This document shows, one piece after another, positions 52,753-62,524 of a stretch of DNA of 64,000 bases. Numbering within the stretch: the stretch's first letter is position 1; each line of letters starts with the position of its first letter. The notes under the pieces are model-generated. The model was given only the letters and a program-made list of their open reading frames with translations, had not been told where the DNA came from and made no database searches. Made by a program: the position numbers and the translations under genes. Origin of the DNA: an uncultured Chloroflexia bacterium. Lineage in GTDB: Bacteria; Chloroflexota; Limnocylindria; Limnocylindrales; CSP1-4. The stretch is from the NCBI GenBank assembly GCA_963763775.1, contig CAVXPZ010000001.1:1440001-1504000 (forward strand), given 5' to 3'.

Positions 52753-52756
<4 letters not shown>
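51376..52756 (-). CDS. pyrC: Dihydroorotase (frameshift near 51795)
   Basis: PGFIDLHAHLREPG, GGFTTVCAMPNT, FSDDG, HVST, VTPHHL, VNPPLR, ATDHAPH, SRGKNSP. Confidence 0.95.
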
Positions 52757-54437
<1,681 letters not shown>

Positions 54438-55908: not shown

Positions 55909-57765
55909 CTAGCGAACGACGACGACGTCCTCGCCGGGCACGCTCTCCACGCCGCCGAGACTGTCACCGGACCAGGCCACGACCTGGACCTTGCTGCCTT
56001 CGGCGTCCTGCCCGTGCGGCGTGACCCACGCCAACCGTCCATCGCCGATGGAGAAGCCCGGCAGGGCCGGGACCTCCGTCGGCGCGCCCTTCGGTCGTTC
56101 GAGGGTGCCGCTGCCGCGGTCCAGCCGGAACAGCGAGAGCCGGCCGATCGCCGGGTCCGCCGGCTCCGCGGTCCAGATCGCGAGCCATTGGCCGCTCTCG
56201 TCCCATCGGGCGTCGAAGTCCGCGATCTCGCCGTCCATGCCCGCGATCTTCGACCGCGTCGCCGCGCTCGTGGCGTCCGGCTGCCAGCTGGTCAGGATGA
56301 GTTCGCCCTGGTCGGGGAGCAGCCGCGTCGCGCCGTCGGCCGTGGCGACCGAGCCGGTCCACGCCACGGCGAACCGGTCGGTCGGGTCGACCACCGGGCG
56401 CCACAGGTCGATCGGATCGCCGATCGCCTTGCCACCCTTCGGGTCAAGGATGAAGCTGCGTGCGACCGTCGCATCCGCCGCGGCCGGGTCGGCCTCCAGC
56501 CGGCTGCCGACCACCCGATCCCCGGACCACGACGCGAAGACGCTGGCCCCATCGGTCGTCAGGCGGCGCGCGGCATCGTCGCCCATGCGCCAGACGTAGA
56601 TGTCCGGGCCGCCGCTCGAGTCAGCCGGCTTGGCGGTGAAGGCGAACCACTCGCCGTCCGCGGAGAACGCGGCTGACTGGCCCACGACCGTCACGCCGGT
56701 GGCGATCGCGATGGCCGTCGCGGTGGCCTGGGGCGTGGCCGCGGTGGTGGGCTCGGGCGTCGGGCTCGGCGTCGCCGCGGCGGTCTCGGCCGGCGTGGGC
56801 TCGGGGGTCGCGGTCTCCGGGCTCGCGGACGGCTCGGTGGACTCGGTCGGGCTCCCCGAGGGCTGGGGCGAGGCCGGCTCGGTGGGGGACGACGCGGGCG
56901 ACGCCGAGGGCGTCGCCGCCGCGGTCTCGGTCGGCGTGGGCGCCGGCGTGGCGGTGGTGCCGCTGTCGCTCGGGGAGGCCGTCGGCGTCGCCGTGGGGGC
57001 GGTCGCCCGGATCTTGGCCGGGAGCGACATCACGTAGATCTTGTCAGCGCCCGATCCATCGGATCCGACGACGACTGCTCGGTCGTCCGTCGGCGAGCCG
57101 AAGACGGTCTTCGGGGTCGCCGTGAGATCGACGGCCTTGGCGGCGCGCTCGTCGAGCGTGGCGCAACCCGGCTTGTCGCCGGCCGGGCAGACCTGCTGCA
57201 CGGCGTTGTCGTTGTAGGCGTACTTGCCGTCGCCGACCGAGCGGAACCAGCTGACCGAGTCGGCGACCACGTTCATCGGGGTCGCCCCCGGGAAGGCGCT
57301 CGCCAGGGCGATGTCGGGACTCGCCGCGGGTGCCGTGCTGGCGGTCCCGACCGCCGGCTGATCCAGCCAGCCGCCCGACAGGGCCGTGGCGCCGACGACG
57401 ATGACGACGATCGCGATCCCGGACATCGCACCGATCGGGAGCCGCGGACGACCCGTAGCGGTCCGGCGCCGCGCCCGCGGGCCGTGATGGGCCGCCTCGC
57501 GCTCGATGCCGGCCGCCGTTCGCGCCCAGAGGTCGCGCGGCGGCTCGATCGGGACGTCCCGAAGCGAGCGGAGCGCCAGCCGGTCCGTCTCGTAGGCCGC
57601 AGCCACCGAGCGACAGGCGGCACACTCCTCGAGATGGGCGTCGAGCCACGCCGCTTCGTCTGCATCGAGCGGCGAATCGAGCTGCTCCGCGGCGCGGGCG
57701 CGGGCGCGTTCGTGGGGCGACGACCAGCCGTCGGGCCGTCGCGGCACCCGCCAGGATCCGGTCAT
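55909..57765 (-). CDS. Zinc-binding anti-sigma factor with TM, Pro/Thr linker and beta-propeller-like sensor domain
   Basis: WLDAHLEECAAC (HxxxCxxC); TM; AFSADGEWFAF...DIYVW; overlaps the sigma gene stop. Confidence 0.88.
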   Translation of the reverse strand: MTGSWRVPRRPDGWSSPHERARARAAEQLDSPLDADEAAWLDAHLEECAACRSVAAAYETDRLALRSLRDVPIEPPRDLWARTAAGIEREAAHHGPRARRRTATGRPRLPIGAMSGIAIVVIVVGATALSGGWLDQPAVGTASTAPAASPDIALASAFPGATPMNVVADSVSWFRSVGDGKYAYNDNAVQQVCPAGDKPGCATLDERAAKAVDLTATPKTVFGSPTDDRAVVVGSDGSGADKIYVMSLPAKIRATAPTATPTASPSDSGTTATPAPTPTETAAATPSASPASSPTEPASPQPSGSPTESTEPSASPETATPEPTPAETAAATPSPTPEPTTAATPQATATAIAIATGVTVVGQSAAFSADGEWFAFTAKPADSSGGPDIYVWRMGDDAARRLTTDGASVFASWSGDRVVGSRLEADPAAADATVARSFILDPKGGKAIGDPIDLWRPVVDPTDRFAVAWTGSVATADGATRLLPDQGELILTSWQPDATSAATRSKIAGMDGEIADFDARWDESGQWLAIWTAEPADPAIGRLSLFRLDRGSGTLERPKGAPTEVPALPGFSIGDGRLAWVTPHGQDAEGSKVQVVAWSGDSLGGVESVPGEDVVVVR

Positions 57766-58400
57766 CGCGGTCGCTCCGCGGCGGATTCGGCGGCCTGCTC
57801 GGCCGCGCGCTCGGCGGCGAGGGCCTGGCGGAGGCTCTCTCGTGCGCGCGTCAGGAGCGCTCGGGCCGCCACGTGGCTGACACCCAGCGCCGCGGCAAGC
57901 TCGAGCCCCGTGAGGTCGTGCAGCTCGGCGAGGAGCAGCGCGGCCCGCTGGCGCTCCGGGATCCGCCCGAGGGCCCGCTGCATGTCACCGGAGAGGCGGG
58001 CCTCCATGACCAGGTGCTCGGCCGAGGGCGCAGACCCATACGATTCGCCGGTCCACGGGAAGAACCGGATGATCTTCCGACGGCGGATCTCGTCGAGCGC
58101 GACGCGGTGCGCGATCTGGTAGAGCCAGGCCCGGGCGTTCTCGGGCTTCTCGAGCGTCTCGTAGTTCTTGTAGGCCTTGATGAAGGCGTCCTGCGTCATG
58201 TCGGCGGCGACCTCCGGGTCGCGCATCATCCGGAGCAGGTACGCGTAGATCTCGTTCTGGTGCTTGGCGAAGAGCGTCTCGACGAACGCGGCCGCCTCGT
58301 CCCGATCCCACGCGCCGGTCATGAGACGTCCGGGACGCCCGGCGATGACCGGGACGCCGAGGGGTTCGCGAGGTCGCTCGAACGAACGGTCGATGGCCAC
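57762..58400 (-). CDS. ECF sigma-70 factor (start uncertain)
   Basis: AADMTQDAFIKAY, AWLYQIA, IPERQRAALLL...ELAAALG...LTRARESL. Confidence 0.94.
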   Translation of the reverse strand: MAIDRSFERPREPLGVPVIAGRPGRLMTGAWDRDEAAAFVETLFAKHQNEIYAYLLRMMRDPEVAADMTQDAFIKAYKNYETLEKPENARAWLYQIAHRVALDEIRRRKIIRFFPWTGESYGSAPSAEHLVMEARLSGDMQRALGRIPERQRAALLLAELHDLTGLELAAALGVSHVAARALLTRARESLRQALAAERAAEQAAESAAERPR

Positions 58401-58518
58401 TGAGACTCCGAGCAGAGAGGATCGCGGGACGCGCGGGGTGAGCGCGACGCGCTTGTCGGCCCAATGACGCCGGGCCTCCCTCCGGTGTGACGCCGCTCGG
58501 GACCGGACACGCGACCGA

Positions 58519-59517
58519 TCAACCCGTCGCGCCCGTCGGCGCGTCGGTGCGGCCGAGCAGTTCCTCGACCGCATCCTCGGGCGAGACGGGATTCACCGGG
58601 AGTCCGGTTCCCAGCTCGAGGCCGGCGATCTCCCGGAGGCGCGGGTGGATCTCCCAATGCCAGTGGTACGTGGCGTCGACCTGCTCGCGCAGCGGTGCGG
58701 TGTGCAGCACCAGGTTGTACGGCGGTCCGTCGAGGCTCGTCGCCAGCCGCGACAGGACCTGCCGCAGGGCCTCGGCCGTGGCGGCGATGTCCGGCGTCCC
58801 GGCCCGGCCGAAATCCGCCTCGTGCCGGCGTGGGACGACCCAGACCTCGAACGGGGAGCGGGAGGCGTACGGGGCGAACGCGACGCTCTCGGCGTCCTCC
58901 CAGACAAGGCGGTCCGGCCGACGGACCTCATCGCGGACGAGCCGGCAGAACGGACACTCGCCCTCGCGGATGACGAACCGCGCCGCGCCGCCCAGCTCCT
59001 CTGCGATCCGATGCGGGATCTGCGGGAGGTCGTACAGGTCCAGGCACAGATGGTTGGTTCGCGCGCCGGCCTGCGCGCCCCAGTTCTGGACGACCGTGAG
59101 GTACTCGGTCTGGCCGGTGGCGCGGGCCCCGACGATCGCGTCGCGCGCCCCGGTGAGCAGCGCCTCGATCACCTGGTTCCCCACGGCGTGCAGCGGTCGG
59201 TGCTCGCGCGGCGGGGCGACGACCGTGCGCCAACTGCCGGTGGCGCGGGCCTGGGCGAGCGCGACCTGCCCGAGTCCGTTGTCGAGCGACCGCGCGTCCT
59301 CGCCTGTGCCCACGACGTGGAACGCGAAGTCCTTGAGCATCCGCGTCCGGACACCCTCGCCGGGCGGCGTGGTGCAGTTCGCGCAGCCGAATACGTGGTC
59401 GTCGACCGGCTCGGCCGCTCGGGCGAACCGATCGAGGTGGAAGGCGCGGTCGACGACGGTCGCGACCCACCACCCGGTGATCGGGTCCTTGCGCAGCTCG
59501 AAGAGCCCGGCGGCCAC
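58519..59517 (-). CDS. GalT-fold (HIT-like) protein with a non-canonical active site
   Basis: ELRKDPITG, CANC, NWGAQAGARTNHLCLD, CPFC, PYASRSPFE, PYNLVLH, YHWHWEIHPR, AGLELGTG, NPVSPE. Confidence 0.88.
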   Translation of the reverse strand: MAAGLFELRKDPITGWWVATVVDRAFHLDRFARAAEPVDDHVFGCANCTTPPGEGVRTRMLKDFAFHVVGTGEDARSLDNGLGQVALAQARATGSWRTVVAPPREHRPLHAVGNQVIEALLTGARDAIVGARATGQTEYLTVVQNWGAQAGARTNHLCLDLYDLPQIPHRIAEELGGAARFVIREGECPFCRLVRDEVRRPDRLVWEDAESVAFAPYASRSPFEVWVVPRRHEADFGRAGTPDIAATAEALRQVLSRLATSLDGPPYNLVLHTAPLREQVDATYHWHWEIHPRLREIAGLELGTGLPVNPVSPEDAVEELLGRTDAPTGATG

Positions 59518-59525
59518 GGTCCCGC

Positions 59526-60243
59526 CTAGCGTCCGCGGTCCAGCGGCGCGTCGAGGACCGCGCCGAACCTCTCGGCGAAGATCCACGCCGCACGCTCGAC
59601 CGAGTCGGTCGACGGCCTCGCCGGCATCGTCACCGCGCTCGCGGGCGATCGACGTCGACACGACGTCCGGCATCCCGCATGGATCGATCAGCTCGAAGTC
59701 CGCGAGGTCGACGGTGATGTTCAGCGCGATCCCGTGGTACGTGACGCCGCGCTCCACCCGCAGGCCGAGGGCGCCGATCTTCCGCGGCGACGGGCCGTCC
59801 GGGTCGCACCAGCAGCCGGGATGGCCGTCACGACGTCCGGCGACGACGCCCAGCGCCGCGCACGTCTCGGCCAGCGCCGCCTCGAGGGCACGGACGAACG
59901 GCCGGACGAGCAGGCCCCGCTCGTGCAGGGCGACGATCGGATAGGCGACCAGCTGCCCCGGGCCGTGATAGGTCACCTCGCCCCCGCGCTCGATGCGGAT
60001 GACCTCGATGCCGCGCTCCTCGAGGTCGCGTTCGCTCGCCAGGATGTGGCCCGGGTCGCTGTTGCGTCCGAGCGTGAGGACGGCCGGATGCTCGAGGAGC
60101 AACAGGCGGTCGCCGATCCGCCCGTCGGCGCGTTCCGACGCCAGCGCACGCTGCATGGCGTGCGCTTCGCGATAGTCGATCCGGCCGAGCCAGTCGACCC
60201 GGATCGGGGCCGATCCGATGGGGGTGAGGACCGTCGCATCCAC
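59526..60243 (-). CDS. lipB: Lipoyl(octanoyl) transferase (frameshift near 59615)
   Basis: LEHPAVLTLG, RGGEVTYHGPGQLVAYP, KIGALG, HGIALN, PCG; the shifted frame ends AERFGAVLDAPLDRGR*. Confidence 0.94.
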
Positions 60244-60397
60244 CTCCGCACGATAGCAGGGCGGACGGGGCTGGCCCGTCGGAGCGCCTCGTCGGACCGG
60301 CGGGTGTGGTCGATATGCAACGACTCCGTTGGATGGAGTTCCGGGTGCGAGGCGCGAGGCGGCATAATCGGCCCTGCTTGACGGAGGCGTCGTACCG

Positions 60398-61124
60398 ATG
60401 ACGGACGACGAGCCGAGACCCATCGAGCCTGAGGTCATGCTGTGTTGTCCTGGTTGAATCGCGCGGGACCATTCGCGATCCCGCGCTTCATCTGGGTTCT
60501 CCTCGCGATCGACGCTGCCCTGGGCATCGTCTATCTCGCCGACTACGCGATCGGCCACCCCGTCAGCCTGTTCGCCAAGTTCATCGACCTCGACGGTGAG
60601 CGCAACCTTCCGACGTGGTACTCGTCGATCCAGTGGTTCGCCGTGTCCGCGCTGCTCTTCGGGGTCGCGGACCGGTTCGCCGAGCGACTGGCTCCGCGGT
60701 CCTGGCTGTTGTACCTGCTCCCGCGATCTTCCTGGCGTTCTCGATGGATGAGGTCGTGCAACTCCACGAGAAGGTGGGCGACGAGACTGACGCCCTTCTA
60801 CCTGGCGCGACTCGGGCGGCCACCCTCGTCCATGTGACCGGTCTCTACATCGTCGTGCTCGGCCTGCCGTTCCTGATCGCGTTCGGCGCCGTCATCCTGG
60901 CCGTTCGGCCGTACTTGCGTCGGCCGCCCGGCGGCCTCACGAAGGTCGTGGTCGGCATGATCATGATGATGACGGGAGCCTTGGGCTTTGACTTCCTCTC
61001 GAACTTCCTCACTCCTGGCTCCTGGCCGGCGACGATGGAGATCTACATCGAGGAATCGCTGGAGATGGTCGGGTCGACCGTCATCCTGTGGGGAAGCTTC
61101 CAGCTCCTGACGGACGTGGTCTAG
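60398..61124 (+). CDS. Multi-pass membrane protein (frameshifts near 60440 and 60720)
   Basis: IDLDGERNLPTWYSS, FSMDEVVQLHE, IEESLEMVG. Confidence 0.7.
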
Positions 61125-62524
61125 CGTTCGCGGCCCAGACGCCGGTCTCGGCGGCGATCCGACCGGCCTTGACGGCGGCCACGAGGGCGGCGTGGTCGCG
61201 CTCGGTCTGGTCGGCGTACGCGTCGCCGAAGTCCGCGATGGCGTCGTCGAAGACCGGGCCGGCCCCAAGGTACCCGGCGATCTCCGCGGGATTGCCCGAC
61301 CGTGAGTGTGCACGGGCCAGCGCCCACGCACACACCTTGCGCGTAGAGGTCCATCCCCGGTGGTGCGAAGACCCGGTGATATCGACGCCGTACTTCATGT
61401 CGTGGAGCTGCCGCGACGTAGTACTCGGTGCCGGTGATCGGCGACTTCGTCCAACCAAGGAAGCTGTCCGACACGGCCTGCATGATCCGCTGGCCGGTCA
61501 CGACTCGCTCGCCCTGATGCCGCGGTTTGCGGACCGGATGTAGCGGAGCGAGCACGGACTCCGTCGCTTCCTTGACCTGGAGCACCAGCGGTCCACCGGC
61601 GGGTCCCGCGAACAGGGCGACGTAGCATCGCGTCCCGACGCTCCCGACACCGACAACCTTGAGCGCGACGTCGAGCAGCCGGTGCTTCTCGACGAGGACC
61701 CGACGGTCCGGGGCGAGTGACCGTACATAGGACCGGTGCATCTGGTCGAGGACGGCACGGCCAGGGTCGTCATCGGGTAGTCGCCGCAGCAGTGGCGGAC
61801 GGTCGCGGATCAACCATCCGCCGCCGGGCACCGTCACCGAGAGCTTGCCCAGCGCCGAGATGTGGTCACGCTTGTCGCGCCGTGTCGACATCGGAGAGGA
61901 TGTCCGTGCGGAGTCGCTCGCGCTCGACGCGTTCGAGGATGCGTCTCGATGGGGATCGCGGCGTACCAGACCTGCAATGCCCGCATTCCCGCGTAGGTGC
62001 GGACCCATCGGCGGTACTCGGCAGCCGACGACCCTGGCGGTGTCCCGGGCTGTCGCCTCGCTGTACCCGTTTTCCCGGGACGCGACGACGAAACTGGCCG
62101 CCAGACGCTTGACGTCCCACTCCCAGGGCCCTGGATGGGTCTCATCGAAGTCGTTGAGGTCGAAGACAAGACGGCGCTCCGGGCTGGCGAACACCCCGAA
62201 ATTCGAGAGGTGCGCGTCGCCGCAGAGCTGGACGCGCGACCCGGTCGTTCCGGTCGAGGCGAGATCGCCGGCCATCACCGCAGCCGACCCACGCAGGAAC
62301 GCGAACGGGGACGCGAGCATGCGCCCGATCCGGATGGGCGTGAGCTCCTGGATGCGCGCTGCATTCGAGGCGATCAACGTGACAACGGGGTCCGCCCGGC
62401 CGGTCGGGGGCGACCAGGTCGCCTGACTCCGACGTGGCGTCGCCTTTCGGAGGCCGACGCCACGCGCGAGCGAGAGGGCGGCGCGGCTGTCCGGTGGAAG
62501 GGTGGCCTCAGGGTCGGGGATCAC
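61121..62524 (-). CDS. DUF2252-family protein (several compensating frameshifts)
   Basis: RMLASPFAFLRGSA, CGDAHLSNFG, FDLNDFDE, PWEWDVKRL, KVVGVGSVGTR, LQVKEA, YADQTERDH. Confidence 0.88.
   Translation of the reverse strand: MIPDPEATLPPDSRAALSLARGVGLRKATPRRSQATWSPPTGRADPVVTLIASNAARIQELTPIRIGRMLASPFAFLRGSAAVMAGDLASTGTTGSRVQLCGDAHLSNFGVFASPERRLVFDLNDFDETHPGPWEWDVKRLAASFVVASRENGYSEATARDTARVVGCRVPPMGPHLRGNAGIAGLVRRDPHRDASSNASSASDSARTSSPMSTRRDKRDHISALGKLSVTVPGGGWLIRDRPPLLRRLPDDDPGRAVLDQMHRSYVRSLAPDRRVLVEKHRLLDVALKVVGVGSVGTRCYVALFAGPAGGPLVLQVKEATESVLAPLHPVRKPRHQGERVVTGQRIMQAVSDSFLGWTKSPITGTEYYVAAAPRHEVRRRYHRVFAPPGMDLYAQGVCVGAGPCTLTVGQSRGDRRVPWGRPGLRRRHRGLRRRVRRPDRARPRRPRGRRQGRSDRRRDRRLGRER

Follow-up and report, generated by a model that had tools for sequence, protein, structure and literature searches.

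What does a protein with a GalT fold do once its catalytic motif has been replaced? This question is raised by an open reading frame (ORF) at 58519..59517 on the minus strand of a 64,000-nucleotide stretch of DNA (the window) from an uncultured Chloroflexia bacterium (assembly GCA_963763775.1, contig CAVXPZ010000001.1, positions 1,440,001 to 1,504,000). The gene, a GalT-fold paralogue referred to below as galTL, has 332 codons with a GTG start at 59517, and the interval given includes the stop codon. According to excerpts of a recent preprint the GalT motif is HXHXQ, with a Zn-binding first His and a second His that acts as nucleophile (bioRxiv 10.64898/2026.09.13.751320). In galTL the place of H-x-H is taken by H156-L157-C158 (59044..59052, minus strand, as are all features below unless stated otherwise) and the place of the Gln by D160. 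The ORF, its strand and the motif coordinates are as a first-pass annotation of this DNA had given them, and alignment confirmed that HLC stands at H-x-H. On balance we favour the reading that galTL is a selected paralogue in which GalT-type chemistry has been lost and the pocket re-lined, that it is probably a non-catalytic, metal-stabilised binding module, and that its operon position is on the lipB side.

The family relationship of galTL was analyzed by sequence and by predicted structure. The closest solved relatives detected with HMMER were Arabidopsis At5g18200 (1z84, E 3.8e-31) and then Pyrobaculum GalT (6k5z, E 1.2e-24). In these alignments NHLCLD was set opposite SHSHSQ of 1z84 and HP[H/F]SQ of 6k5z and 6k9z, and C158 was paired with H186 in the H-S-H of At5g18200. 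An AlphaFold model, for which a 68-row alignment (alignment A1) served as input, had a predicted local distance difference test (pLDDT) value of 92.8 and a predicted template modelling (pTM) score of 0.91. Foldseek searches with this model returned 1z84 first (E 3.3e-25, template modelling (TM) score 0.75-0.80), followed by 6k5z (E 1.5e-20) and, after it, GalT of the E. coli type (1gup, E 5.3e-20; 1hxq) and human GalT. The two programs together predict a two-half-barrel GalT fold, and a search of the ESM Atlas returned GalT-family clusters alone.

Curated profiles did not recognize galTL as a GalT. It scored 36-37.9 bits with TIGR00209 (cut-off 102.1), 22.2 bits with PF02744 (cut-off 29.2) and 24.8 bits with DUF4921 (PF16268; gathering cut-off 28.5, profile positions 220-394 of 425 covered), and gave no match to PF01087, the N-terminal GalT domain. 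The cut-off of the latter was passed by 10/10 canonical relatives, and 0/6 subfamily members scanned matched it. PF16268.11 is assigned to many relatives in pre-computed tables. The histidine triad (HIT) domain PF01230 matched residues 201-287 with 25.1 bits against a cut-off of 21.5; the HIT motif is H-phi-H-phi-H and its counterpart here reads H-W-H-W-E, as it also does in canonical relatives, whose C-terminal half (C-half) is the non-catalytic one. By these profiles galTL is no GalT, and despite the fold and the metal sites described below the protein is probably not one.

To define the residues lost, kept and gained, 20 subfamily rows of alignment A1 were compared with 47 canonical short GalT-like rows. 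Conservation of at least 75% among the canonical rows was seen in 87 columns, of which 52 are kept and 35 altered in the subfamily; 26 of these 35 are in the N-terminal half (N-half). The altered N-half columns take in the catalytic and nucleotide-binding motifs, and the alterations in the C-half are mostly conservative. At the columns of C158 and D160 the 47 canonical rows read H and Q without exception; in the subfamily H158 is changed to Cys or Asn, S159 to Leu and Q160 to Asp or Glu. Column 153 holds Arg (15), Leu (3) or Met (2) in the 20 subfamily rows, compared with Ser (34) or Thr (10) in the 47 canonical rows. Also changed are R27-P28 of RxxRP, P46 and F47 of CPFC, N61 (to Leu) and P64 of NKxP, and H96 (to Trp) and E97 of HEV(I), and the G.E..TP (GNE..TP) loop is deleted. 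Three changes in substrate-binding motifs had been proposed from the sequence at first pass. Two of these, RAKRP to RAFHL (R24-L28, 59434-59448) and HEVI to WRTV (W96-V99, 59221-59232), hold in the alignment; the third, in which NKxP was equated with KDFA, is one residue off, the counterpart being L61-K62-D63-F64.

The same preprint, as far as excerpts go, states that in E. coli GalT the alpha-phosphate is bound by S161 and the beta-phosphate by Q168 (bioRxiv 10.64898/2026.09.13.751320). Given these roles and that of the nucleophilic His, all three catalytic residues would be replaced in galTL. With the catalytic and nucleotide-contacting residues of the N-half gone, the protein should be unable to carry out ping-pong nucleotidyl transfer through a histidine-nucleotide intermediate, as judged at the level of sequence, and there is good support for the predicted loss of GalT chemistry.

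The metal sites had a different fate: all twelve presumed ligands are retained in the alignment. They fall into three sets, namely C45/C48/H105-H106/H156, C188/C191/H232/H285 and E174/H272/H287/E289. C45 and C48 of the first set (C45-A-N-C48, 59374..59385; presumed N-half Zn ligands) both occur in 20/20 subfamily rows and in 44-46 of the 47 canonical rows; H156 occurs in 20/20 and H105/H106 are present. The presumed C-half Zn ligands C188 and C191 (C188-P-F-C191, 58945..58956), found in 19/20 subfamily and 47/47 canonical rows, form together with H232 and H285 a mirror image of the N-half set. E174, H272, H287 and E289 align with what we take to be the iron-ligand positions of E. coli GalT. 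Of the C-half metal-ligand positions, H272 ends the motif LVLH (58702-58713), and H285-W-H287-W-E289 (58651-58665) is extended by I and H291, the latter specific to the subfamily. Excerpts of the preprint cited above describe a non-essential iron site in the E. coli and Pyrobaculum enzymes (bioRxiv 10.64898/2026.09.13.751320). The C-terminal AGLELGTG..NPVSPE motif is retained as well. The first-pass view that scaffold and metal sites are kept agrees with both the predicted fold and the ligand positions in alignment A1.

The subfamily has also gained residues of its own. At 31 positions a residue is conserved in at least 90% of the subfamily and in fewer than 35% of the canonical relatives, and W16, L61, W96, L157, Y162, Q166, H169, D281, T283, H291 and R295 are among the subfamily's own residues. 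Y162 and H291 are gains at an equal offset from the first His of the H-x-H of each half, as counted on the motifs. Taken as a whole, galTL would keep the two-half-barrel fold, a presumed Cys2His2 Zn site in each half, the Glu/His site of the C-half and GLELGTG..NPVSPE, and its N-half nucleotide-sugar active site would have been dismantled and re-lined with the new invariant residues W16, L61, W96, L157, Y162, Q166 and H169.

The distribution of galTL was analyzed in 401 Chloroflexota genomes; the sample includes one unpublished genome (G227), on which no claim is based. Among 23 genomes of the source genome's own family (f1) 20 carry the gene. It is present in 4/4 genomes of a second family (f2) of the same order, which have sizes of 1.1-1.4 Mb (49-51% identity), and in 16/16 genomes of a family of the sister order (f3; 44-50% identity). 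Neither of the two genomes of a fourth family (f4) has it, and 0/19 genomes in a further sample of that family gave any TIGR00209 match, even at the weak level that galTL gives in the other three. Full-length matches beyond the class reached 37% identity at most. A word-indexed search identified 2884 relatives among 8000 candidates scored; the best 120 of these are all 85-99% identical to galTL and 332-336 amino acids long.

We translated 109 orthologues: 100 from the source family (99 with HLC and one with HTC), four from the small-genome family (all HLC) and five from the sister order (all H-L-N). None of the 109, from three families, has H-x-H, and the second His and the Gln are absent throughout. 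All keep H156; at position 158 there are 104 with Cys and five with Asn, and position 160 is always Asp or Glu; 90 positions of galTL are invariant across the three families. The median pairwise ratio of non-synonymous to synonymous substitution rates (dN/dS), computed for 14 loci of the source family, is 0.164 for galTL, 0.168 for the neighbouring sigma factor gene, 0.301 for lipB and 0.469 for the anti-sigma factor gene. These data point to changes that are ancient, coordinated and under selection. The first-pass annotation had named strain-specific decay, with close homologues retaining HPH, as the outcome that would overturn its proposal; the homologues were checked and showed no such pattern, and its claim that the changes are coordinated, in frame and free of an indel artefact is borne out by their presence in 109/109 orthologues together with the dN/dS value of 0.16. 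Frameshifts in the vicinity (in lipB and in a DUF2252 gene, see below) could suggest that galTL is itself decaying as a pseudogene, or that its sequence in this strain is an artefact of sequencing. That explanation is refuted by an intact frame, by the same motif in all orthologues of three families, by purifying selection and by a confidently predicted fold, and we give it practically no weight.

The same set of orthologues bears on the proposal, also made at first pass, that galTL is a nucleotidyl transferase in which Cys158 acts as the nucleophile. The Cys does stand exactly at the nucleophile position in 104/109 orthologues, next to a retained Zn-binding His. However, the sister order has Asn there (5/5 loci, plus protein P0142), the Gln has become Asp or Glu, which would repel phosphate, the Ser for the alpha-phosphate is replaced by Arg, Met or Leu, and RxxRP, NKxP and the GNE..TP loop are lost with the other nucleotide motifs. 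We therefore regard a Cys-nucleophile enzyme as very improbable.

The origin of the subfamily was addressed with a tree of short GalT-like proteins, obtained by a quick IQ-TREE search. The 20 subfamily rows formed one side of a branch with a Shimodaira-Hasegawa-like approximate likelihood ratio test (SH-aLRT) value of 100; the length of the stem is 1.33 changes per column. In the wider family 4738 hits were found; the best 150 cluster representatives were taken and the 79 with a length of 280-420 amino acids were aligned. All full-length rows of this set below about 46% identity read H-x-H-[SCTW]-Q except P0252 (H-S-I-S-E) and P0266 (H-V-R-S-Q), which were left out of alignment A1 with several other rows. 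These two proteins have lost the second His and kept the CxxCxG.E..TP loop, and are 32-38% identical to galTL. Like galTL they are without the second His; unlike it they keep the loop, and by identity they fall outside the Limnocylindria-type clade. The second His thus appears, from these alignments, to have been lost more than once in the family. galTL itself would have a single origin, in the common ancestor of the Chloroflexota class concerned, from the short bacterial and archaeal family of GalT and ADP-glucose-phosphorylase type.

galTL was also compared with known systems. The ADP-glucose phosphorylase At5g18200 (1z84, 1zwj, 2h39) is the best match in sequence and fold and is of similar length. 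Both proteins have CxxC in both halves and a C-terminal G[FL]E.GTG..NPV.PE. Where At5g18200 has S-H-S-H-S-Q galTL has T-N-H-L-C-L-D, so that nucleophile, Gln and preceding Ser are all replaced; the second His of H-S-H, which we take to be the nucleophile of At5g18200, aligns to C158. The N-terminal alignment of the two is limited to ELRKDP.T..WV. Short class I GalT-like proteins of the Pyrobaculum aerophilum type (6k5z; 6k9z is a mutant) belong to the same family as galTL by HMMER and by the tree, and share with it both CxxC pairs, H232, N268, H272, YHWH.E..PR and the C-terminal motif. The canonical short rows have HxH[S]Q in 47/47 and mostly CPFCxGNE..TP, RxxRP, NKxP and HEV, none of which is present in galTL. 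GalT of the E. coli type (TIGR00209) has the same fold (1gup and 1hxq, E ~1e-19, TM 0.75-0.78) and has in common with galTL the N-half Cys2His2 ligand positions and, in the C-half, E174, H272 and H287.

From these data galTL would most likely be without catalytic activity and serve as a metal-stabilised module that binds a ligand or a protein. The alternative is that it is still an enzyme, one that works without a histidine-nucleotide intermediate, either through the re-lined N-half pocket (candidate residues D/E160, Y162, Q166, H169 and C/N158) or through an elaborated C-half centre (H272, H287, E289, H291, D281, T283 and R295). Its retention in genomes of 1.1-1.4 Mb speaks for this, as do the strong purifying selection noted above, the polar nature of many of the 31 subfamily-specific positions and the matched gains Y162 and H291 in the two halves. 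Set against it are the alternation of Cys and Asn at the central position 158, the lack of any clue to a substrate from gene context, and the C-half itself, whose ligands do not differ from those of canonical relatives and look structural. We also considered that the active site might have shifted to a more HIT-like C-half; HIT-profile scores of this half are 22.6-26.6 bits in the subfamily and 17.7-38 bits in canonical relatives, no higher in the former, and the idea is not supported. An enzyme of this kind is in our view rather doubtful, though possible.

The non-catalytic reading of galTL remains a prediction, and several observations weigh against it. Selection this strong, combined with 31 own residues of which several are polar (D/E160, Y162, Q166, H169, D281, T283, H291, R295), would fit an enzyme with a novel reaction just as well. 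With the C-terminal motif retained, part of a ligand site may survive; this motif presumably completes the sugar site of the partner subunit in the E. coli GalT structure. The description of the pocket as re-lined derives from alignment to known motifs and not from geometry. Finally, no gene partner is constant across all three families, and the context therefore offers no clue to a ligand.

The first-pass annotation had suggested looking for a canonical galT elsewhere in the genome, and one was found. A true GalT of the E. coli type is encoded at 1188400-1189410 of contig C1 of the source genome (G000), with 443.4 bits for TIGR00209 and the motif NPHPHGQ. It is 25% identical to galTL over 287 aligned columns and, in contrast to galTL, is without the CxxC/H232/H285 set in the C-half. 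In the class as a whole a canonical galT above cut-off was found in 19/61 genomes, and galTL is present in the three families with or without it, which indicates that galTL is independent of the Leloir pathway. The paralogue alone, with nothing above the GalT cut-off, was seen in G261, G333 and the small genomes of f2; the genomes concerned include G133, G269 and G309. One public source names galTL-type proteins UDPglucose--hexose-1-phosphate uridylyltransferase. Such GalT annotations of the group are probably wrong, and metabolic reconstructions may wrongly credit genomes that have galTL only with the Leloir pathway. Two further contigs (L033 and L069) carry a galTL 84-87% identical in an unchanged gene order and are filed as Saccharimonadales / Patescibacteria; these are probably mis-binned Chloroflexota contigs.

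The gene directly upstream of galTL is lipB (octanoyltransferase, 59527..60240, with a provisional start; 184.8 bits with NF010925), the tail of which ends at TAG 59527-59529, 9 nucleotides before the galTL start. In 73/78 relatives the lipB stop lies 1-12 nucleotides ahead of galTL, which fits co-transcription and coupled translation. Together with the promoter-like motif described below, this suggests that galTL is an operon partner of its upstream gene, lipB here, and that the sigma/anti-sigma unit downstream may be separate. In the sister order the gene directly upstream of galTL codes for a GNAT acetyltransferase in 4/6 genomes; in a fifth the GNAT gene is about 1.2 kb distant, and in the sixth it was not found. 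A protein acyltransferase as partner in every family (LipB in the first two, GNAT in the third) was considered, and this idea is weakened, as only four of the six have the GNAT gene directly upstream.

An ORF of 679 amino acids at 58519-60558, which would correspond to a LipB-galTL fusion, was considered and rejected. LipB in fact has a tail (..PSTDSVERAAWIFAERF..) that is encoded in a different frame from the ORF joined to galTL, ends at the TAG given above and matches the LipB tails of relatives. LipB and galTL appear as a single ORF because of a one-base frameshift near 59623/59624. Over 59479-59623 a near-identical environmental contig, taken from a public run, differs from the window by one mismatch, and after that it is one G short. 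This, with the tail in the other frame, leads us to conclude that lipB of the window has a one-base insertion. The DUF2252 gene (61081-62524) is likewise split in two frames, with profile positions 1-322 in ORF 61121-62524 and 314-392 in ORF 61081-61458. Two frameshifts within 2 kb suggest indels of the assembly (four contigs) and not biology. Reads of the same strain were sought: no public run contained more than 0.22 of the sampled words, and the contigs assembled were short pieces of relatives.

Downstream of galTL lie a gene for an extracytoplasmic function (ECF) sigma factor (57762..58322; 186 amino acids from the ATG at 58322; Sigma70_r2 63.9 bits, r4_2 40.1 bits) and one for an anti-sigma factor (55909..57765). 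The latter, of 618 amino acids, has an N-terminal zf-HC2 domain in which H44, C48 and C51 are invariant; a long linker rich in Pro, Thr and Ala sits between its membrane segment and a PD40-like C-terminal part. A plus-strand ORF at 56600-57037, with a GC content of 0.99 at third codon positions, looks like an antisense shadow of this low-complexity linker. The arrangement with lipB upstream and the ECF sigma/zf-HC2 anti-sigma pair downstream, all on the minus strand, is as first described. In the same conserved gene order follow pyrR (53805-54377) and pyrB (52753-53808).

The first-pass annotation had proposed, as one of two readings, that galTL is a catalytically dead ligand or metal sensor, and from its position next to this sigma/anti-sigma pair that it could be an accessory signalling component. 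The case for lost GalT chemistry is strong, as argued above; a sensor role is a possibility. The sigma gene was found in 80/80 related loci, the order galTL-sigma-anti-sigma in 80/80 close loci and their adjacency in 21/21 loci of the source family; in the sister order the sigma gene follows in 5/5 loci and the anti-sigma gene in 4/5. Constraint on galTL and on the sigma gene is similar, as the dN/dS values above indicate, and the anti-sigma factor has an invariant H-x3-C-x2-C as galTL has several presumed metal sites. Three observations weaken the link. First, conservation of the gene order extends beyond the sigma/anti-sigma pair to pyrR-pyrB-pyrC in both taxonomic orders, the sister order having sigma, anti-sigma, pyrR, pyrB and pyrC in the same order, so that gene order here seems frozen in general. 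Second, the sigma gene has a conserved promoter-like motif of its own behind the galTL stop. Third, the four reduced genomes of f2 keep lipB-galTL, with no sigma gene within 1.5 kb and no clear orthologue: the best sigma hits elsewhere in these genomes have 29-35% identity (E ~1e-9), compared with 38% (E 1e-31) for the orthologue of the sister order. Conservation of the lipB-galT-sigma neighbourhood, a check suggested at first pass, accordingly holds for galTL-sigma in two of the three families and fails in f2. The link of galTL to sigma signalling is weak, and we consider an accessory sensor unlikely.

The motif in question, an ECF-type promoter-like CGTCACA-N16-CGTC at 58466..58492, follows the galTL stop and precedes the sigma start. 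In the form CGTCACA-N15/16-CGTC it is conserved in 19/19 aligned intergenic regions of the source family, and it resembles ECF promoters, those of the ECF41 type in particular. There is one copy in the window and two in the genome, compared with none for the reversed control, and the motif is absent before lipB. The other genomic copy is at G000:C1:560390-560416 on the plus strand. A consensus scan of 58150-60800 found no consensus promoters or terminators.

What galTL binds or does may be a matter of a new site. We tentatively entertain the possibility that the re-lined pocket (W16, L61, W96, L157, C/N158, D/E160, Y162, Q166, H169), perhaps with the enlarged His/Glu cluster of the C-half (H272, H287, E289, H291), forms a new functional site for a ligand other than a nucleotide, or for a new reaction. 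If this were true, the GalT fold would contain a new functional class with galTL as its founding member, and this class would be essential enough to be kept in genomes of 1.1-1.4 Mb. Full-text searches of the literature returned no paper in which 'pseudoenzyme' occurs together with GalT or with 'histidine triad', nor any that mentions DUF4921, and within these searches such a GalT variant was not found in print. With its class-wide presence, selection as strong as that on a sigma factor, replaced catalytic residues and retained metal sites, galTL would be a clean case for the reuse of a disarmed HIT/GalT scaffold. The Limnocylindria are described as abundant and uncultured Chloroflexota of soil and freshwater, and a core gene that their most reduced genomes have not lost deserves experimental work.

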